A DNA stretch of 64,000 nt from Octopus vulgaris. Its lineage: Eukaryota. Every line of letters starts with the position of its first letter. Position 1 is the first letter of the stretch. The notes under the pieces were generated by a model. The model searched no databases, was not told where the DNA came from, and worked only from the letters and a program-made list of their open reading frames with translations. Location: positions 171,864,001-171,928,000 of the forward strand of contig OX597814.1 in assembly GCA_951406725.2 (NCBI GenBank). The letters run 5' to 3'. The translations under genes and the position numbers were made by a program. Shown here in pieces: positions 22,664 to 62,689 of this stretch.

Positions 22664-24830
22664 AGCATAGAACTAACAAACGCTCAAAGAAAAAACAAAA
22701 TGCTAGACACACAAATGGCACCTAAAGAATCTCAAAATTATAATGTCCAAACAAAGAGTATCTTAAAGAATTTCTTGAATCAGAGCATTCCATTTCACAA
22801 TGTAAAGCACCGCAAAGAGTAGATGACGTCAGCAAAATGGAAAATGAAGTGAACGGTCACTATAACTGTGTGTGTAGTATTATGATTGATTGATTTTAGT
22901 TTCAGCTCATGAGCTGTGGCCATGCTGGGGCACCGCCATTTTGAAAAGATATTGTTGAAAAGATATTTATAATATTAGTGAATTCAATGATAGCTAATTA
23001 ATCATTCGGTGTTGTCAGTGCAAGCGCTGTTCTGTCAACTAGAAGTACGAGGTTACCTCTGTCCAACATATTATGCACTAAAAATAGCTCTAAGCTACTA
23101 GTCTCTCTCTGTGGACAGAATACTAGTAACCTATCCTTTGCAAAAGTTTAACAAAACCACAAACTAATCAGATCGTTATATTTTCCTGTATACAAAGAAC
23201 TGAAATTTGTAAAGTAATCATTTTGCTTTTTTGCAGCTTTATTTATCGAAAAGGTATGACGTACAATATTTTTAGCTAGGTATTTTTTTTAATAATCGCA
23301 ATTTGTTAGAAAGAGCAACAAGGGTTACAACATAAACATAAAGGTGTTTTTTTTTTTTTCATTAGATCAGTGTAAGCACAAACGCACAAACACACTCACA
23401 ACTTATACGTGTGCACATGTGTGTGTGTGTCTGTTTGTGTATGCGTTTTGAACAAACGAATGCATAGGTGTATGAAAGAGCATTCAAATGTTTATGTGTC
23501 AGTGCGTGTGTATGAATTCATCAGTGAATCTTTATACAACACTTTGATTTACGACTGGGAATCTTTAGCAGACCCGGAAAACCGCTGATATCGGTCCAAG
23601 GTGTGCTGAGAAGCTGTCAAATTTTCTATACTAACCACACAGTAAATTTAGAAACATTGATGAAAGAGCAATAACACACGGAATTGTAAAAGAAAATTAA
23701 GGAAGGTGTGCCATATATTAAAGATATTGTCTTATATGGTGGAGAAAGTCTTCGAATAAAAGTCAATAAAAATATAAACAATATCAAAATCAATTGATGT
23801 AGTTGTTTTTCATAGAAATAATTCATTTACGATTTTCAGCTAAATGTTATTTTTTTCTTTCTTTTTCTTTTTTTTTTTTTATATTCCTCAGTTACTAAAT
23901 TCTACGATTTATTCTCTGAATATAATTTATCTGAAGCAAAGTTCGACTGTACCCTATCTGAAGAAAAATCGTGTGTCCCCTTTATATGTTGATATAGTAG
24001 AGTCAGTTGTACCCTACATTCGCGAAGAAACTGTAAAACAGTTCAGCTGTACCTTACGTATTCAAATTAGCAGTGTCATTTTCTTCTACCTTACATTATG
24101 AAAGTGTAATGTCAGCTGCACTTTATAACATTAGAATGGTTAAGTTTGTTTGACTTTTTTACTTCCCGTACATCACATATTGGAATTAACAGATTCAACA
24201 GTTCTTTTCTATATTATTGTTTGTTGTAGTTAGTTTCTTTTTACTAAACAGTAAAGAAAAGGAAAACGGAAATATATAGTTATCTAATTACATTACCAAG
24301 TATACTATTGTTGCTGCTGCTTAACTCCAGGTCAGGCCTGGTCAAGCGGAGCTATGATCAATAGCATTGCGGCTTTGATCAATCTATATATCAGGAATGT
24401 CATTGTCAAATCTATCCTTTATTTAAGACACTAGAATGTAATTTGAAAGAGATTTGGTTGTTATTTCTAGCATATCAAATAACCCGCGTACAGGCTCCTT
24501 CGATTGTTCATTTCCAAGGGTGTTAGTGACACAAGTTATGTGAAGTGGCTTAGTCTGGAAACTGAAACCGCGTAAAAGCCACAAATCTTATCTTCTGTGT
24601 TTCATACATGAAATTCTTAGATGATAATATTATCCAGTTTATAACAATGTGGAATGGGTCTTTGGCACAACCAGAATTTTAAAAACTGGGCTTCACCTTT
24701 TGTTTGATCCGAGTTAATGTTTAGAACTTGTAGAGTTTTATGAATTTTTCCTGTTTGACTAGGCACAAAAGCCAATATTTTTTTTTTTTTTTTTGTGGGA
24801 GAGAGTAAGACTAAAATATTATGACGTTTA

Positions 24831-25245
24831 AGGCGGCGAGCTGGTAGAATCGTTAGCACGCCGGGCGAAATGCTTTGTGGTATTTCGTCCGCCGCTGCGT
24901 TCTGAGTTCAAATTCCGCCGAGGTCGACTTTGCCTTTCATCCTTTCGGGGTCGATTAAATAAGTACCAGTTACGAAGTGCGGTCGATATAATCGACTTAA
25001 TCCGTTTGTCTGCACTTGTTTGTCCTCTCTGTGTTTAGCCCCTTGTGGATAGTAAAGAAATAGGTATTTCGTCTGTCGTTACGTTCTGAGTTCAAATTCC
25101 GCCGAGGTTAACTTTGCCTTTCATCCTTTCGGGGTCGATTAAATAAGTACCAGTTACGCACTGGGGTCGATGTAATCGACTTAGTCCCTTTGTCTGTCCT
25201 TGTTTGTCCTCTCTATGTTTTGTCCCTTGTGGGCAATAAAGAATT
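24831..25245 (+). mobile_element. SINE-A dimer (head-body-tail-body-tail)
   Basis: Junction aaagaaata|ggtatttcgtctg at about 25062; outer duplication aatattatgacgttta on both sides. Confidence 0.9.
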
Positions 25246-29902: not shown

Positions 29903-30133
29903 AGGCGGCGAGTTGGCAGAATCGTTAGCGCGCCGGACGAAATGCTTAGCGGTATTTCGTCTACCGTTGCGTTCTGAGTTCAAATTCCGCCGAGGTCGAC
30001 TTTGCCTTTCATCCTTTTGGGGTCGATAAATTAAGTACCAGTTACGCACTGTGGTCGATGTAATCGACTTAATACCTATGTCTGTCCTTGTTTGTCCCCT
30101 CTATGTTTAGCCCCTTGTGGGTAATAAAGAAAT
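29903..30133 (+). mobile_element. SINE-A, young Tx1-tail subfamily
   Basis: Duplication ggtatgtaaataga on both sides. Confidence 0.9.
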
Positions 30134-31141
30134 AGGTATGTAAATAGATAGATAGATAAAGAGTCTGAATATATGACTATATTTCTAATGTCCTTCAGTT
30201 TTAGACAGTGTGTTCATGGAAATTTGGTTGCTACATCTACCAAGTCAAGTGCTTGCGTAAGAGCTTTCCTTCATTGTCTGGAAGTAAACTTTATTGCTGT
30301 TGTTGTGCAGTCGTAACCAAACAAAACTATTGTAAAACGTCTTTGTAATCCCATCATTTATAAAAACGAACGCTATATTTCAATAAGCATACCCTCTACT
30401 TGACACGAAAGTATATGATTTGTGAGAATTTTGGCTACTACTTTCAGCAGCTTAAAACAGTCAACTGTCAAGTTCCCTGTTTAGCAAAATCATGTGTCAA
30501 TGAAAAATGCTTTCTCTCACTTTCCTCCCCCTCCCTATCGCAGCCGTGTAACAGCTTCTATCTCATATCTTCAGTGAAGGTGGCTGAAGTAACAGGGTAG
30601 TGAGTTCGACGTTTGTCTTTCCAACGATATGAATTTCCACTTAGAGAAGGTGATAAAAATTTGTATAAGAGCGATTACGTTATCAGTATTACTACTGGAT
30701 TTAACTAGTTGTTAGCTTCATCAACCTATCCTTATTCATATTCAACTGTTCCCATCCTACCAACTTTCTGGTCTTATATCTAATTTAGAAATAATTATTC
30801 ATAATATTATTTACATTCATTTCCTTACCAAAAAAACTTCTGACTCTTGGCGCCAACGTAGAGCTTTCTTAACCTGGGAGAAATAATAGCTACAACTCCC
30901 TTAAACATGTTTTCTGCCGACTTAAAAAAGAAGAAAAGATGTGTTGGATAATGTGGTTCTATATAGACTGCGTCTCGTAAAATGTGACAGGCACACCTTT
31001 TGACTATGGAGCTTATTTAATCAGAGTTAGCCAAGGCTCAGCAACAAGTTTCTACTCCTTATTGCAAAATGTAACCTTATTTATTCTTTAATCTTAATTT
31101 TTCAATACAAATTCTATATTTTCACTCTTAATTCTTTATTC

Positions 31142-32067: not shown

Positions 32068-32498
32068 AGCGGCAAGCTGGCTAAGGCGGCGAGCTGGTAG
32101 AAACATTAGCACGCCGGGCGAAATGCGTAGCCGTATTTCTTCTGCGTTACGTTCTGAGTTCAAATTCCGCCGAGGTCGACTTTGCCTTTCATCCTTTCGG
32201 GGTCGATTAAATAAGTACCAGTTACACACTGAGGTCGATGTAATCGACTTAATCCGTTTGTCTGTCCTTGTTTGTCCTCTCTGTGTTTAACCCATTGTGG
32301 GTTGTAAAGAAATAGGTATTTCGTCTGCCGCTACGTTCTGAGTTCAAATTCCGCCGAGGTCGACTTTGCCTTTCATCCTTTCGGGGTCGATAAATTAAGG
32401 ACCAGTTACGCACTGGGGTCAATATAATCGACTTAGTCCGTTTGTTTGTCCTTGTTTGTCTCCTCTGTGGGTAGCCTCTTGTGGGCAGTAAAGAAATA
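32068..32498 (+). mobile_element. SINE-A dimer with a short duplicated 5' end
   Basis: Junction aaagaaata|ggtatttcgtctgcc at about 32314; outer duplication acacttacagtcttaa. Confidence 0.9.
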
Positions 32499-35770: not shown

Positions 35771-35803
35771 ATATACAATTACAACCTGGTATTTAGTAAA
35801 GAG

Positions 35804-36032
35804 GGCGGCGAGCTGGCAGAAACGTTAGCACGCCGGGCGAAATGCTTAGCGGTATTTCGTCTGCGTTACGTTGTGAGTTCAAATTCCGCCGAGGTCGTCT
35901 TTGCCTTTCATCCTTTCGGGGTCGATAAATTAAGTACCAGTTACGCACTGGGGTCGATGTAATCGACTTAATACCTATGTCTGTCCTTGTTTGTCCCCTC
36001 TGTGTTTAGCCCCTTGTGGATAATAAAGAAAT
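35804..36032 (+). mobile_element. SINE-A, young Tx1-tail subfamily
   Basis: Duplication ggtatttagtaaa on both sides. Confidence 0.9.
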
Positions 36033-36801
36033 AGGTATTTAGTAAATATAATTTTACTCTCACTGTGAATATGGATCCCATGATAATATCCAAGAAGCTT
36101 AGGACAACAAGTTGAAAAGAGCGAATAGAATAGTTTCCACTACCGTTAAAAGTTAAACTGACATTCTTTTATTTCCTCTCGATTGTTGAAAATTATATGA
36201 TTATATTGAAACATGCGGGCACATGGAGGTTAATATTCTTGAGTTGGTAAACCTGGAAAAGTACAGGAAAGCATATTTATGCTTAAAATATTGCAGCTAT
36301 AGTTAAAATTTAAAAATATATTTAGATTTAAAAACTAAAAATAATAGCTTTAATTAGCTACTCTATAATAATAAAATTAACTCAAATAATAAATTTAAGG
36401 CTAACTGTCAGCAAAAAATATAAAAAATTTCAATAGCCCCATTAATAGGGCTATTGAAAATTTTCAATTACAAGTGTTTAGAACTACTAAAAGTTCGTCA
36501 GTAGTATTCAATTGAAATTCCATTTTTACTAATCTTTTTATAGAAATTGGCACACTATAATTCATTGGTAAAGACACCACAAGGCTGGTCTTCTGGAAAT
36601 TTCAAACAAGGAAAGTTCAATTGAAACCTTTATGGTAGGGTTGAGGTTTAGGGGAGAGCACTGTGATATTTTCCGGAGAAGGCGGTACTCTTACTAATCA
36701 TATTTTTTGAGGGGTTGCAGTTGAAAGGTCCGCATTCTGGATGCTAGCAATGCATACAACCGTTAAAACACACTCTATTGGCTATAAAATGTATGAATAT
36801 G

Positions 36802-37234: not shown

Positions 37235-37875
37235 CGAATATGTTATACATTATAGTATTCGCTATAAAATGATATTGGCTATAAAATGTATGAATATGTT
37301 CTATATTATAGCAAGGAAAGAAAACTCTGTTAACACGCAAGTTATTTGATCGTCTTTTTTACTGAATTCAGTCACATTTGTTTTGCAATGTTTTCTCCTC
37401 CTAATTTTTTTTTTGTTTTGTCCTTAAAACAATGGGCACCTTTTGATTAATCTGACACATGAAAAATCTCTTTAAAATATCTAGGCGTGTATTAATACTG
37501 GAAACCTTATTTACATTAAATCTGAAGTAAATAATACACTGTATATACTGAAACTGTTTATTCATTATCTAATCACCAAAACCATTTGTTTGAGAATCAG
37601 AATGTATGTAGCCTACAAATTTTAGAATTTAAGCAAACAAAAGAATATAATGCTTGAACATACATACATACATGCATACATACATACATACATACGTAGG
37701 TACGTACATACGTACGTACATACATACATATATGCATACATACATACATCGTTTTATTGTTTTTATTTAACTGTCTAAATCTAGTTTGTGTAACTCCAAA
37801 AACGTCGCAAAATATAATGCAGTGATAGTGTAATGTTAAGAGGCATTGTGGCTTCGTCAGATGTCTATACTATAA

Positions 37876-38320
37876 GGGCGTGGCGAAGTGAGAGAATCGC
37901 TAACGCGTCAGATATAATGCATTGCAGTATTTAATAACGTTAGCACGCCGGGCGAAATGCTTAGCGGTATTTCGTCTGCCGTTACGTTGTGAGTTCAAAT
38001 TCCGCCGAGGTCGACTTTGCCTTTCATCCTTTCGGGGTCGATAAATTAAGTACCAGTTAAGCACTGGGGTCGATATAATCGACTTAATCCGTTTGTCTGT
38101 TCATGTTTGTCTCCTCTGTGTTTAGCCCCTTGTGGGTAATAAAGAAATAAGTATTTAATAACGGTTCTTTACGTTCTGAGTTCAAATTCCATCGTGGTCA
38201 ATTTTTGTATTTCATCTTTCCTGAATCGTTAAAATAAAGTCCTTGCCAAAACGGGGAAGGCAGTATAATTGACTATTCACCACTCTCAAATTTCAGGACA
38301 AGTGTTTATGTTAGAAATCA
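37876..38320 (+). mobile_element. Old SINE-A interrupted by a young SINE-A (37936-38149)
   Basis: Duplication agtatttaataacg flanks the young copy; the old copy resumes with ttctttacgttctgagttcaaattcc. Confidence 0.8.
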
Positions 38321-44713: not shown

Positions 44714-46705
44714 ATATGATATAGAGTTGATATTAGAAATCAGTTTAGGATTCTAACTGTTACCACTCAGATTTTTCACATTCGTCTAGACGTATGCGTG
44801 GGCTCGTCCAGGCAATATTTGGTGAATGGAAGTAACATAGCATCAGTGGCAAACTAGTTTAGCTAATACTCATTGATCAAGGTGTAAGAAGTGATCCAGT
44901 ATATAGAAGCCAAGAAATATCCTTATTGCTTGACAGTTATTGTGTAAAAAAAAAAGAACTCGATTCCGACCTAGAATCACCTGGAGGAAGGTGCTTCACG
45001 ATGTACAGAATCGTTTGGGTGTGTGGTGAATCGTCACTCCGTAGATTTCTGAAATTATGGAAGCTTTTCAGGGAGAATTTTTGTTCTCTGATGATGATGA
45101 TGATGATAAGGTAATACACCTCTGATATACGTTTGTGATATCACTGGATGTTTTAATATGTGCGACTTCTTAGTTGTGCATAGCTAGATTTTGGGAACTC
45201 AGTTTGTTGCAAAGTATCAAAGCCGATAATGGTTCTCTTTTAAAACCTGCGATCTTTGAATTTTCAGTCGAATTGGAACAAGATCGAGGAAGTAGTCCTG
45301 TCAGTACTTCTTCAAAATATTATAAATATGCTGTATGTCCTTACTTTGGAAAGGCAAAAAACCCTTTGATTAGGCAGAAAGAGAAATTTCTATAGCTTCT
45401 AGTAGGCTCTTGGAATGCCAACTCACTTATAACTGATGTTGACCGAGCAGGAATAGATGTCCTTAATGTTACTGGTCTCAAATGGATTGTTTTATTTGTA
45501 TTATAGGTGGGAACTATCTTAGCAGAGACACTACATCCCTAGCAATACTAGTAGCAACATTTAGAATGAATAGTGGAGAAAACCAAGTTACCTTCATGTT
45601 TCTCACACACACTAACACTCAGAAATAAAAGAATATATTTTTGAGGTATAAATTATTACTGATTTACTCATATTAATAGGTTCTTACGTTGCACACCAAT
45701 CTTGGAATCTGTATGGTTACTCTCGTCAAGCTCCTCGAACTAAACTCATATAGAAACTGAGAGTTGAGTATTATATGATACGTATACATGGGTTACATAT
45801 GTATCAAACGCACAAAAATCACGCACGTGCACACAAACAATTTGCAAAATCTGTGTCAATACATGCAGAAACTGTGTACGTTTGTAAAATATGGTTATAA
45901 TATAGTGTCATACATTAACTGGTGTATGTATTCCTTTACATACTTGTCGGTGTATCTTTCTATCTTAATTCCAGTTATACATCTATACATGTATACCGTT
46001 ATGTTATGATATAATATCATAATATATTGTGTTGCTAATATCATTGTATTATCTCTGAGGTGCAGGTATGCTTCATATCATACTTAGCATGTATTAATCT
46101 CAAGACGAGCAACAATTCTTTTTCTCTTCTACTAAAGCAGCACTCGTCTTCCGTATGTAGACAGATTCAGTAACTTGTTAAAATGACGGATCTGTGGGTG
46201 CGTGTATAGGATTCACAAGCTATCCTTGTTTATCAACCTGTCATGTGTATTTTTTTCAAGGCAGTTAGCAAAGTAGAAGCGCTAGTTTCTTTTCATTGCT
46301 TGTGTACATGTGCTTCACAAATACCTCAAGTGTATTATGGCTACATCTTACCTATAAATAAACGTATTGCTTCTACACATATGCACACAAATATACAACA
46401 CAAGTATACGTGAACAAAGAGACTTACACATATCCATACGTTGTTACGTAGACTAACATCTATGGCCTCCCTCACCGCCACCACTATCTCCAATTGGAAC
46501 ACAACGCCAATATATAATGTACAAAGAGCAAAGAGAAAACGTAAATGATAAGTTCGTGGGAAAGACTACATACGTATAAATAATATCGACAGCAAAGTCA
46601 TTTAATAACAAAGAGTGCATGTCATTTCCTTGAAAGAACGACACTTCCCAATTATACTGATATTGCATTCAGCACACTATTTCATATTCATAACCTTGCG
46701 AAATA

Positions 46706-47049
46706 AGGCGGCGAGCTGACAGAATCGTTAGCACGCCGGGCGAAACGCTTAGTGGTATTTCGTCTGCCGCACTGGGGTCGATATAATCGACTTAATCCGT
46801 TTGTCTGTCCTTGCTTGTCCTCTCTGTGTTTAGCCCCTTGTGGGTAGTAAAGAAATAGGTATTTCGTCTGCCGCTACGTTCTGAGTTCAAATTCCGCCGA
46901 GGTTGACTTTGCCTTTCATCCTTTCGGCGTCGATTAAATAAATACCAGTTACGCACTGTCCTTGTTTGTCCCCTCTGAGTTTAGGCCCTTGTGGGTAGTA
47001 AAGAAATAGGTATTTCACCCGTTTTTACTTTCTAAATTCAAATTCCGCT
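46706..47049 (+). mobile_element. Nested SINE-A trimer
   Basis: Two Tx1-type tails, each followed by ggtatttc. The outermost old-type copy continues at 48370-48490. Confidence 0.85.
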
Positions 47050-48369
47050 GGATCTTTCCTGTTTGGTTACCAGTGGCTCCAAAAATTAAAGTTTACTGAA
47101 AATTTTATAATTTGGCACAATGACACACTTTCCCAAACGGAACTGCTGGACATATTTCATTTTTTTTTTATTTCCAGAAAAATGTTTTAAAAAAGTTATA
47201 GAGGTTTAAAGTGTGTCGGATCTTTCCTGTTTGGTTACCAGTGGCTCCAAAAATTAAAGTTTACTGAAAATTTTATAATTTGGCACAATAACACACTTTC
47301 CCAAACGGAACTGCTGGAGATATTTCATTTTTTTTTGTTTCCAGAAAAATGTTTTTAAAAAGTTATAGAGGTTTAAATTTTGTTCATTTTCACCCAGTCA
47401 GGAAACAGGATTTGAAAGCTGTCATTTTGTGCGTGACTGCACATTTTGCTGTCAAAATCCTGAAAATAGAAGGTATTGTCAATATTTGTAAACAAAACGT
47501 GTTGTGTTTCCGGTAATTTTCTTTCATGCAAATAAATCTTATTTAGCTGTTATTTTTAGCACACCTCACAACCACCAGTATTTAATGCAAATGCGATAAA
47601 CAACATATTACATGCATTAAGCACATTACAATTTCTAACAGAAAGATTTAAAAGAATTAGATGAAAGTTCTCCGGTAATTTTCTTTAATGTAAATAAATG
47701 TTTATGTTAATTTAAAAGCGAAAAAGAGTTAGTTTTAAATCTGTGATCGAGGTGTTGGCAAATAAACTTTAATTTAAAAGATTTATTTAGCTGTTATTTT
47801 TAGCACACCTCACAACCACCTCAATGCTCAATAACGAAACGATACAAACATTAAACAAACAATTTAAGTATGTTTAATTACAATTTAAATGCGCTTAAAA
47901 AACAAACATTTAACTTTCGGTTTCAATTTTGAAAATATCCTCCTCTGTTTTTAATGTTTCCATAATAGAAGCTAAGTTACTGGAGCATGCTGCCATAATC
48001 GCACAGAACACAGAACACAACATCAAATTCGTCAACACGTGCTTCCTCGCAGATAAAAGACTTCTCAAAGACTGCTAGGATTCGCTTGTTACTATGGCAA
48101 CAGGCACGTTGAAAAAAAAAAAAAAGAGTTCTCATGTTCCGCTTCTTACTATCGAAATAGCCATGAATGTATCTGTGGCTTACGAATGGCTAAAATTACC
48201 AAAAATTTCAAACTTTAATTACTAATAACTCTTTATTTATTGATTTATAGGGAAAATTACTTTCACGTCATTAATTAGCCTATAAAAGTGTATCATTGCA
48301 CTGAATATGAAATCAATTCGAACAGTAAATTGACGGTGGCGGCCGCTGGCAACCAAACAAAAAATATCT
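47050..48369. mobile_element. About 1.3-kb non-autonomous TIR element (GGATCTTT terminus) with duplicated left end
   Basis: Left ggatctttcctgtttggttaccagtggc; right gccgctggcaaccaaacaaaaaatatc; 168-bp tandem duplication (units start at 47050 and 47218). Confidence 0.7.
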
Positions 48370-48506
48370 ACTTTGCCTTCTATCCTTTCGGGGTCGATAA
48401 AAAAGTACCAGTTAAACACTGGGGTCGATCTAATCGACTTACCCTACCCTTAGAACTTGCTAGCCTTGTGCAAAAATCTGAAATCAGTAATCATGCGAGC
48501 TAAGTG

Positions 48507-49232: not shown

Positions 49233-50485
49233 TGTTTCTTTATTAGCCACACAGGGCTGCACACAGATAGAACAAATTACAAGGTAGAGCTTTTCTTTTG
49301 AAGGTTTAAGAAAGAAAAAAAAAAAAAAAAAGGAAGGGGGAGTTTCGATCAAAAGGGATCGTAAAAGGAGAGAAAGAGGACAAAAAAAGAGGGGTTTAAA
49401 AAAAAGGGGGGAGGAAAAAATTGATCAATAGGGATCGTTATCACAGAAATGTCAATATGAAGTGTAAAGGGGAGGACAGGTGAGGTTTACCCGTGGAAAG
49501 AAAAGCCTACGGAAAAGACCACGGTAACCTCGGTCAATGATGTCACATTTTATATTTCTTTTTTTTTTTTTTTGCAAATAAGCAACTCTCTGTTTTCGAT
49601 TTCTGGGTTCATAGGACTATGCTCAAGGTGGCTTCGTCATTCATACGTGCCATTCTTGCTACATTCACCCATCTTTTTTTAAAACATTCGCTAGACAAAA
49701 CTTGCCTCTCTACTCTCACTTTCCTTTTCAAGTGGTACTTGAAGAAGTTGATGAGAGATTGACCAGAGAGGAAAGTGTTTGTCTCCAATCCTTTCAGACG
49801 CGTCCACCAGATACATTCTTTCGCCATAGCCACAAGGATGATGAAAATAGCTCTTCCTTCCCGTTTGAAGGAAGGAGGCGTGACAATATTGACGATAGAC
49901 TCAGCTGATAAACCGACTCGTCCCACACGTGACAGCAGTTGTTCGACATAAGCCCACAGGTCGGAAATTGTTGGACACTGAACGAGTGCGTGCAGAACGG
50001 TTTCGTCGCTCTGACCGCATCTCGGGCAGGTCGGCCCCGTGTTTCTCGAGCCGTGTCTGTAGAGCTTATCCCGAACGGGTAGCGCTTCTCGGTAGCACTG
50101 CCAGGCCAGGGATCTCTGGAAGTTGTCCATGGGCCCTGGCCCGAAAGTCGTCCTGAACAGGCGGGTCAGGTACTCCTCGTCGACGTCCAGGTTCGCCCCG
50201 AGCTCGTCGTCGTACCTCCCCTCCACTAAACCCCTATAGAATGCTTTGGTTGTGTTGAAGTCACTTAAGGTCGACCCAGGACGGCAGAGTTGCTTGAGAG
50301 CAACGCGACACTCGCGGTGCCATTCGCCCTTCCTCGGCCTCTTTTTGATCCACGACTGCAGTTCGGTCATGGAGACGAGCTGCGGGAAATCGTGCCTCAC
50401 AAACGGCGACCACACCTGTTCACCGTCGTCTACATAGAGCCAGAGATGCCGCAGTCTCAGCGCGTGTCTGCGCATCATCAACCAC
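49233..50485 (-). mobile_element. 5'-truncated Tx1/L1-like LINE (ORF2 C-terminus with zf-RVT-type zinc finger, plus 3'UTR) inside (GATA)n
   Basis: Uninterrupted frame 50485-49609 contains AWQCYREALPVRDKL...TCPRCGQSDETVLHALVQC...LW...AKECIWWTR, typical of L1/Tx1 ORF2. GC-richer than its surroundings. The N-terminal part of the listed ORF is microsatellite. Confidence 0.85.
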
Positions 50486-53012: not shown

Positions 53013-53200
53013 TCTTTCTACAAAAGGCGCAAGGCCTTAAGTTTTTGGGGAGGGGACTAGTCGATTACGTCAACCCAAGTGTTTCACCAGTACTTAATTT
53101 ATCGACACCGAAAGGATGAAAGACAAAGTCGACCCCGGCGTAGTTTGAACTCAAACGTAAAGATGGATGAAATACCTATTTCTTTATTGCCCCAACAACA
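53013..53200 (-). mobile_element. SINE-A with old-type tail
   Basis: Reverse complement of the body; shares the TAA tract with the Dong 3' end. Confidence 0.7.
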
Positions 53201-53392: not shown

Positions 53393-53520
53393 TGCCGGAG
53401 CATCGTGGAGCTTTTAGGTGTTTTCGCTCAATAAACACACACAATGCCCGGTCTGGGACTCGAAACCGCGATCCTCCGACCGAGAGTCCGCTGCTCTAAC
53501 CACTGGGCCATTGCGCCTCC
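53393..53520 (-). mobile_element. SINE-C 5' fragment
   Basis: Reverse complement of 14483-14610. Confidence 0.85.
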
Positions 53521-54383
53521 CACACTTAACATACATATTATATAATACTTCTTTCAACAGACACTCACTGACATATAATAAATAGCTCCTTCCCAAACAT
53601 GTTGCTTATGCATTAATTTGAACTTTTGCATATGATATACTAATTATATTCTTACAACATAATTTTTAATTCGTTTTTTCCAAATTCTCATTTGGCATCA
53701 TTCCTTAATATTTCTCTTTCTCTTATTCCTATATTTCCTCTTATTTTATTTTATTTTATTTTATTTCTTTTAATCTTCTTTTATTGCATTGCTTCATATC
53801 TATATCTTATTTTATAATTATTTTGAATTATCTACTCACATGCCTCGTTATTCTACTCTTAATACGTTTAATGTAACACTTTCGCTACACCCCTTAGAAT
53901 CTCTTAAAAAAATGAAATGAAAAAAGGATTTAGCTACAAATAGAGCCTCCGTTATGTGTTTATCTCAATAGGGGATGTCGTTTCGGTAATGAGTTTTTTT
54001 TTTTCCTTGGATGTGTGGTTAAGAAGCTTATTTCGCCCCAACTTGGCTTCGGATTCAGTCCCATTGCGCTGCACTTTGGGTAAGTGTGTTTTACCATACC
54101 TTCGGGCCGAGCAATGACTTATGAATGAATTTGGTAGGCGAAAACTGCTACGTAAAAGATTCTCGTACACACACACAAACACACGCACATTATATTATAT
54201 ACATTAATATCAAACAGTGAGAACGAGTGGATAAATTGGTGGATAATTTTTTTTTTAATTGTGGGTTAACCAGGCTACCATTGGTTTCATGTTAAGAGAG
54301 ATATATTTCTCAACAATTTTCAAGTCTATTGCATGGAACGTTGGAGTTTGTCTCCATCTTGGTTGAAAACATAAGATGACGAT

Positions 54384-61762: not shown

Positions 61763-62246
61763 CTAGATGAAATTGTGAAATGTTTTCAAGTATTTGAGGA
61801 GGAAGTGTGAACGACTCTATAGATAGATACTTTGTAGTTTTATTGTTCAGCACTTTGTGTTTAAACTTCGCTGAAATTTGATGTTGCTATTTCCGTTAGT
61901 TGTGTTTGATAATTAATTTATAAACAGTTATATCCAGCTTTCACATTACTCCAATAAAATATAATGAGGTTCATAGATTTAAAGTCATCCCATTATCACA
62001 TGTGGATGGTCGGTGCTGAATTTAAGAGCTTTGAATTGGTGCAATCAGATATTGCTAAAAATTAGTGTCAGAGTAAGGTAGATATTGACTAAAATTTCTT
62101 ATAAGGGTTCTCGTAGCATTATCAAGGACTGAACAATGGTAGTCAAGCGTTGGTAGGCGAAAACACAGACATAAGTAAAGACATGTTCATACATATATAC
62201 ATGGATACATTCATGCAAACCACGCATACAGATATGTATATACAGA

Positions 62247-62660
62247 AGGCGGCGAGCTGGCAGAAACGTTAGCACGCCGGGCGAAATGCGTAGCCGTATT
62301 TCGTCTGCCGTTACGTTCTGAGTTCAAGTTCCGCCGAGGTCGACTTTGTCTTTCATCCTTTCGGGGTCGATAAATTAAGTACCAGTTACGCACTGGGGTC
62401 GATATAATCGACTTAATCTGTTTGTCTGTCCTTGTTTGTCCCCTCTGTCTGTAGCCCCTTGTGGGTAGTAAAGAAATAGATATTTCGTCTGCTGATACGT
62501 TCTGAGTTCAAATTCCGGCGAGGTCGACTTTGCCTTTCATCTTTTCGGAGTCGATTAAATAAGTACCAGTTACGCACTGAAGTCGATATAATCAACTTAG
62601 TCTCTTTGTCTGTCCTTGTTTGTCCCCTCTATGTTTAGCCCCTTGTGGGCAATAAAGAAT
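62247..62660 (+). mobile_element. SINE-A dimer
   Basis: Junction aaagaaata|gatatttcgtctg at about 62478; outer duplication atatgtatataca. Confidence 0.9.
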
Positions 62661-62689
62661 TAATATATGTATATACATGTGTTTGTGTA

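Follow-up and report, generated by a model that had tools for sequence, protein, structure and literature searches.

Recurrent insertion of an octopus SINE at an internal site of its own older copies

A 64,000-nucleotide stretch of the Octopus vulgaris genome (GCA_951406725.2, contig OX597814.1, positions 171,864,001 to 171,928,000 of the forward strand; hereafter the window) carries copies of a 233-bp short interspersed element (SINE), one of which, at 46705-48487, is a composite of several units of its own family. Here we report that copies of this SINE have been inserted repeatedly and independently at base 50 (+50) of other copies, young as well as old, and that true self-insertion of the element is very probably what produced this arrangement. 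The evidence comprises the site itself, the independence of the events, the greater age of the hosts, a linkage between tail subfamily and target, and a resistant host allele, C50. An earlier note, made from the sequence of the window, had proposed repeated independent insertion at +50, and both genome-wide structures in which one SINE head lies within another and arrays ending in an old host bear this out. The +17 site, the resistant C50 allele, the local amplification and the possible contribution of master dimers described below go beyond that note.

Results

The SINE family and its likely partner

The element is non-coding and dispersed in many copies with target-site duplications, mostly of 11-20 bp (59/65 pairs), as is characteristic of SINE2 elements. 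Its head contains A- and B-box-like motifs and is predicted to close into a tRNA-like fold, while ARAGORN and Rfam returned no match for the SINE. It is probably the same family as, or a relative of, the tRNA-derived Octopus SINEs OK, OR1 and OR2 (Ohshima and Okada 1994), with which it would share a tRNA-like head and a setting in an animal genome rich in microsatellites.

The SINE tail resembles the end of an active long interspersed element (LINE) with endonuclease and reverse transcriptase domains (80% over 41 bp). A fragment of the same LINE family lies in the window:

49235-50208, minus strand: 3' fragment of an active L1/Tx1-like LINE of the apurinic/apyrimidinic endonuclease (APE) type; its 3' end resembles the SINE tail, and it is a relative of the likely partner

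The family has a 1,145-aa frame covering endonuclease and reverse transcriptase, ends in a zf-RVT domain and inserts into (TATC)n or (TA)n. It thus does not share the +50 target in the way that partner LINEs share the target of the crocodilian SINEU-3, and an extinct partner is possible. A search for LINE-like tails at +50 gave 30 matches, and all 20 of those examined (20/20) were SINE variants, with no LINE among them. The earlier note had pointed to the frequent target specificity of Tx1-clade LINEs, and these results do not establish the specificity of a Tx1 endonuclease as the cause. As side observations, the L1/Tx1-like LINE family is very young (150/150 scored copies identical over 199 aa), many of its copies have full frames of ~1,149 codons, and the CATAT word with which this LINE ends also closes some copies of the SINE.

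The focal composite

Positions within the SINE are numbered from the start of the head at 46705 (position 1). The composite is made up as follows:

46691-46701, plus strand: candidate flanking duplication of the old host, an imperfect 11-bp repeat with its partner at 48488-48498 (9/11 bases alike)
46705-46753, plus strand: tRNA-like SINE head with the A box and the 5' arm and loop of a hairpin, the 3' arm of which starts at +50
46754-46770, plus strand: left copy of a 17-mer equal to SINE +50 to +66, a candidate target-site duplication
46771-46857, plus strand: shortened young unit with a Tx1/L1-like tail, SINE positions 147-233, likely a 5'-truncated insertion, possibly a deletion product
46858-47008, plus strand: second young unit, from +50; its tail is intact and 33 bp are deleted internally
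47009-47050, plus strand: old-subfamily host body from +50
47051-48368, strand not assigned: element with imperfect inverted ends that splits the host body, no class assigned
48369-48487, plus strand: remainder of the host SINE with an old-type tail

The claim of triple nesting holds in that three units stand at one site, of which only two are young additions and the third is their host. The degraded 11-bp repeat encloses the whole composite, which fits the old host copy having been present first. The 1.3-kb element that interrupts the host carries an internal duplication of ~170 bp.

The 17-mer at 46754-46770 recurs at 46858-46874 with no mismatch and had been taken as a diagnostic target-site duplication. 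It cannot by itself carry that weight, because it is mostly family consensus, and a deletion could have left the same structure; the 87-bp piece between the two copies shows 3 bases of microhomology. Genome-wide, comparable shortened first units numbered 44 exact matches (43 distinct), with left breaks scattered from +60 to +136, and early breaks (up to +68) were found in 10/43 against ~5 expected (p=0.02). Short units with a C50 head, tried as a negative control for deletion, were uninformative (early breaks 3/16 vs 7/27). With the 17-base identity counted in, we consider it fairly probable that the focal 87-bp unit is a truncated insertion. The further suggestion that truncated inserts can sit behind the A box of their host gains little from these units, which are rare, the focal one having no B box.

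In contigs of organisms B and D the left flank of the composite reaches into the head (to 46730) and then ends; organism D also has contigs with a head before a host-like body, for which no tie to the focal left flank was established. Contigs cover the tail-to-+50 junction (46967-47020) much more thinly in organism D than in organisms A, B and C, which hints weakly that the expansion of self-homing followed the split from organism D.

An excess of junctions at +50

The 2.8-Gb genome contains 101,678 exact SINE tails, of which 31,071 (30.6%, a figure inflated by arrays) run straight into the +50 motif; GGTA directly follows the tail in 51,573 cases. A genome-wide junction count had been put forward as a check in the earlier note; an exact 29-mer across the junction occurs 20,831 times against 0 for the reversed control, well outside what chance would give, and often at a spacing of 184 bp. 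In a sample of 464 kb chosen regardless of the motif, 18/58 tails were at +50 and 4/58 at +17, so that more than 20% of copies lie beside one repeat site, the share used to call a SINE target-specific (PMC4494074).

A preference for a short word alone falls well short of explaining this, because in the same sample only 26/711 free GGTAT words (3.7%) lay at SINE +50, whereas 18/26 tails of the GGTA class did, an excess of more than 10-fold over plain GGTAT preference. For the longer word GGTATTT the corresponding share was 26/133.

Independent insertion into older copies

Head-in-head structures were sought by pattern throughout the genome and numbered 115 at +50 vs 9 at a control position; 0/9 of the latter returned to the control position after the inner copy, and 3/9 returned to +50. 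The first 30 loci at +50 (29 distinct) were examined individually. In 24/29 the sequence returned to +50 after the inner tail, 21 of them with 10-17 matching bases, although only private bases count as evidence of a duplication, because the first 11 bases lay in the search pattern. Counted in this way, both sides shared non-majority bases in 10/24 loci, 9 of which had one or more such bases that the inner copy lacked. Outside the searched bases, the outer head was the more diverged in 20/24 (22% vs 5.8%).

A second line of evidence comes from 471 distinct elements parsed from 259 loci and the window. Of 80 one-head arrays, 40 ended in a unit with the young tail, 30 in a unit with the main old tail and 3 in a unit with another old tail; in 7 the tail of the last unit was unclear. 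In the 30 arrays ending in the main old tail, the last unit was more diverged than the first in 29/30 (0.086 vs 0.042) and was of host type from base 63 on, i.e. within 13 bases of the junction; the right junction of these arrays is sharp. Since their last units are 16% apart from one another (minimum 8%), old-host arrays cannot stem from a few masters. The units of young-young dimers likewise differ as unrelated copies do (0.104 vs 0.100), only 1/28 being within 3%. Insertion at +50 has thus occurred repeatedly and independently, into young and old copies alike.

Target words and a resistant allele

The terminus of the element reads AAAGAAATA, and the duplication begins immediately after it. 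In addition to +50 there is a second self-site at +17, with 2,147 junctions genome-wide that derive mainly from a different tail subfamily: GGTA targets are associated with T-type tails, and AGA targets with C-type tails. Tail type also predicts the target word where the target is not a SINE (8:1 vs 0:5, p=0.003; 14:1 vs 3:5, p=0.009). Among 59 duplications compared over the first five bases of each copy, the right copy lay nearer to the read-through words in 16 and the left copy in 4, with 39 ties (p=0.012); an origin of those bases in RNA would produce such a shift. One internal variant, which folding predicts to be complementary to the extension, tends to occur together with it (13/16 vs 28/137). 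Copies of a subfamily with the internal variant TACCTAT (29903-30139, 35800-36043) are complementary to the GGTAT extension that follows them, with which a long 3' stem would form.

In the predicted fold, base 50 is the first paired base past the hairpin loop, and the G45/C50 variant retains this pair (C50 with G45). C50 makes up 34/109 of free sites at similar age, and yet C50 hosts gave 2 pattern matches vs 115, neither of which (0/2) was a true insertion. After correction for the roughly one half of hosts that are of old type, we estimate that ~27 C50 insertions would be expected, so that a large deficit remains. That C50 keeps the hairpin and is almost never hit indicates that the sequence at the nick matters, not the fold alone. 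Taken together, the +17 site, the prediction by tail type and the sparing of C50 suggest that priming is guided by read-through RNA and not by endonuclease specificity alone. The +17 self-site, the prediction of target words outside SINEs and the sparing of C50 with its hairpin kept are new.

Single heads and array growth

In more than 95% of arrays there is a single head, and a duplication encloses the array in its entirety; two-head products, in which a plain 10-17-bp duplication is kept, are estimated at ~1-4%. The G45/C50 head occurs in 5/33 old-host arrays vs 2/45 old monomers and 20/76 young monomers, which suggests that the incoming head often replaces that of the host; wholesale replacement of host heads by the young copy was considered as well and is weakened by a matched comparison of head ages. 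Rare bases are shared between units in 6/55 dimers, in 5 of them deep in the body. The head replacement and these shared bases suggest that homology makes the left join and that its position varies, and since tandem heads persist in the genome, joining probably takes place during integration and not by wholesale later collapse. Tandem arrays of the head alone are found at C14:84691109-84691413 and C13:69036075-69036325, with 4-5 copies of units of 66 and 69 bp, and seem to be amplification products of head-in-head insertions.

Higher-order arrays, which had been named as a check on self-insertion, exist and reach 11 units. Long arrays are mostly the product of later local amplification, and tandem near-identical partial-SINE units, by which a SINE-derived satellite is recognized, are found in the long arrays only, not in dimers. 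Separately, diagnostic sites are highly mosaic among 76 young monomers, the 40 commonest haplotypes having no more than 3 occurrences each, and this suggests exchange between subfamilies. Old-tail SINEs often stand head-to-tail with a new head right after the preceding tail (L007, L055, L133, L183, L221), which may reflect a separate tail-targeting habit of the older subfamily.

Other junctions in the window

All six junctions named in the earlier note are present, with tails at 25054, 32306, 38141, 46849, 47000 and 62470, and a seventh was found on the minus strand. Those outside the focal composite are:

24830-25243, plus strand: single-head dimer joined at 25062/25063 and flanked by a duplication of 16 bp; its haplotype pair is the recurrent one, a possible sign of a master dimer
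32083-32498, plus strand: single-head dimer with a C50 head, junction 32314/32315
37874-38240, plus strand: 5'-truncated young copy at the equivalent site of a very old SINE, between clean copies of a host-specific duplication of 14 bp (37926-37939 / 38150-38163)
53090-53192, minus strand: seventh junction (53185), a tail remnant of ~16 bp joined to an old-type body at +50
62246-62662, plus strand: single-head dimer with a C50 head, junction 62478/62479

The head of a second, unrelated tRNA-like repeat lies at ~53450-53560 (minus strand) and also near loci L006, L030 and L128.

Discussion

We propose the following model. Base 50 of older family members is invaded again and again by young SINE copies; the reaction is likely target-primed reverse transcription by the enzyme of an L1/Tx1-type LINE, and pairing of read-through RNA bases with the target likely steers it. 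A copy at +50 would be transcribed past its own tail into the host's GGTATTTC stretch, and because daughter RNAs would prime best on the very stretch that they carry, the +50 preference would feed itself. The left end would usually be resolved by homology with the head or body of the host, leaving one head, with the merging of heads presumably timed to integration, and the units are later amplified locally into 184-bp arrays. Taken whole, we hold this model to be probable, and guidance by RNA as such is a somewhat favoured explanation. Whether the SINE is in addition self-homing, with a heritable target memory, we judge an even question: each landing site would guide the daughters, subfamilies would be locked onto +50 and +17, homologous joins would shuffle heads and bodies between subfamilies, and the compensatory G45/C50 hairpin allele would be immune to invasion.

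Several points weigh against this proposal. A TAT core is common to most target words, as would follow from a preference of the nuclease, and tail subfamilies that use sister LINEs with different nucleases could also yield the linkage between tail and target. A search for the partner LINE by its tail pattern gave 301 matches, and 0/30 examined proved to be a LINE end. Variant sharing between units extends outside the duplication window, and most sampled loci were motif-chosen and from one chromosome (C1). The age difference within young-young arrays is weak: over positions 67-168 the last unit does not prove older in the 40 arrays that end in a young unit (17 vs 16), and over positions 67-225 the 28 young-young dimers give 17 vs 7 (p=0.03). 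The heads of old-host arrays, at 3.07 differences, are not separable from young (2.59) or late-old ones (3.73). In young-young arrays the first units correlate with the last (Mantel 0.30, p=0.002, computed on shared variants because locus age confounds a distance-based test), and 7/28 young-young dimers, including that at 24830, carry one recurrent haplotype pair. Some dimers may therefore have moved as whole units.

The best placed of the alternatives, although in our view an unlikely one, is that self-insertion is set by a partner endonuclease that recognizes either GGTAT-like DNA or the edge of the hairpin at +50. Target specificity is frequent in Tx1 families, with target choice attributed mainly to the endonuclease in the published account of SINEU-3 (PMC4494074), and such recognition would suit a nick exactly at the border of loop and stem, the TAT common to the target words and the protection given by a single base change at +50. 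Separate nucleases would, however, be required for +50 and +17, the shift of right duplication copies toward the extension words is at odds with it, 0/20 of the examined +50 junctions were LINEs, and the retention of the hairpin in C50 means that structure alone is insufficient.

Retrotransposition of one or a few master dimers as whole units is improbable as the source of most junctions, even though it would account for the one-headed arrays enclosed by a single duplication, for the recurrent pair and for the Mantel correlation. The last-unit type of that pair is found in 10/28 dimers vs 5/76 monomers. The linkage of first and last units and the recurrent pair could stem from master dimers, long host duplications or older hosts. 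No two arrays, however, agree within 3% in both units (0/780 and 0/435 pairs), the last units of old-tail arrays, 16% apart, are unlinked to their first units (rho 0.02), and head-in-head copies with private duplications are left unexplained. Master dimers probably account for at most about a quarter of young-young dimers.

More doubtful still, and hardly to be expected as the general origin of arrays, is DNA-level duplication, unequal crossover or ectopic conversion, with the focal short unit as a microhomology deletion. It agrees with the 33/70 adjacent units within 3% in arrays of 3 or more, with the repeated head blocks, with the 33/43 shortened units that break beyond +68 and with the dimers that share rare bases far into the body; it explains the growth of arrays but not their fixed start at +50, nor the host-type last units so close to the junction, nor the unrelated units of dimers. 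As the main route, rolling-circle copying of a circular RNA is rejected on account of the unrelated units of dimers and the old age of hosts.

Self-insertion at an internal site sets this SINE beside several known systems. SINEU-3/Tx1-Mar of crocodilians is, as reported (PMC4494074), a Tx1-mobilized SINE that likewise has a strong preference for a repeat site and sequential tandem insertions separated by duplications; there the target is an unrelated Mariner element shared by the partner LINEs, whereas in the octopus the target lies inside the SINE itself, heads are merged, two sites are subfamily-specific and no LINE was found at the site. R1 of Drosophila and R1Bm/SART1Bm show APE-type site-specific insertion, as is likely for the octopus SINE, together with ~14-bp duplications and tandem arrays at the target (PMC2718515, PMC7265360). 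Flank-derived RNA is described as annealing at the 5' junction of R1 (PMC2718515), which is a precedent for left joins made by homology, and target-like 3' sequence is described as helping the insertion of SART1Bm and R1Bm (PMC7265360). These are autonomous LINEs with a fixed target in a host gene or telomere, whereas the octopus SINE is non-autonomous and apparently both guide and target. In the 'snap-velcro' priming described for L1, the 3' region of the RNA pairs with nicked DNA over 4-10 bases and contributes to site choice (PMC3649969); L1 pairs a constant poly(A) with T-tracts, whereas the paired bases of the octopus SINE would be flank-derived and heritable. Tandem arrays born from SINEs, with a full head, then head-truncated units and one flanking duplication, are also reported as multimers in the clam Scapharca broughtonii (PMC11481361) and as satellites in squamates (PMC10702118), where they make up ~3% of copies and are attributed to unequal recombination, and the available portions of these reports propose no self-targeted site. 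Self-targeting of a SINE at an internal site was not described in the literature searched, which left most subscription journals and the Repbase reports outside.

If guidance by RNA is true, a non-autonomous element can evolve site specificity without any change in a protein, and the respective shares of RNA and nuclease in LINE and SINE targeting become testable on natural material that comprises tens of thousands of insertions, a pair of guide words and a host allele that resists them. The findings also indicate concretely how a SINE can turn into a satellite and by what means SINE subfamilies can recombine. One octopus annotation lists 893 unclassified, recently active SINE families, and the main text of that report uses neither 'nested' nor 'chimer' (PMC13282606). 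Composites of the kind described here would inflate family counts and distort ages, and we infer that they may be linked to these 893 families.
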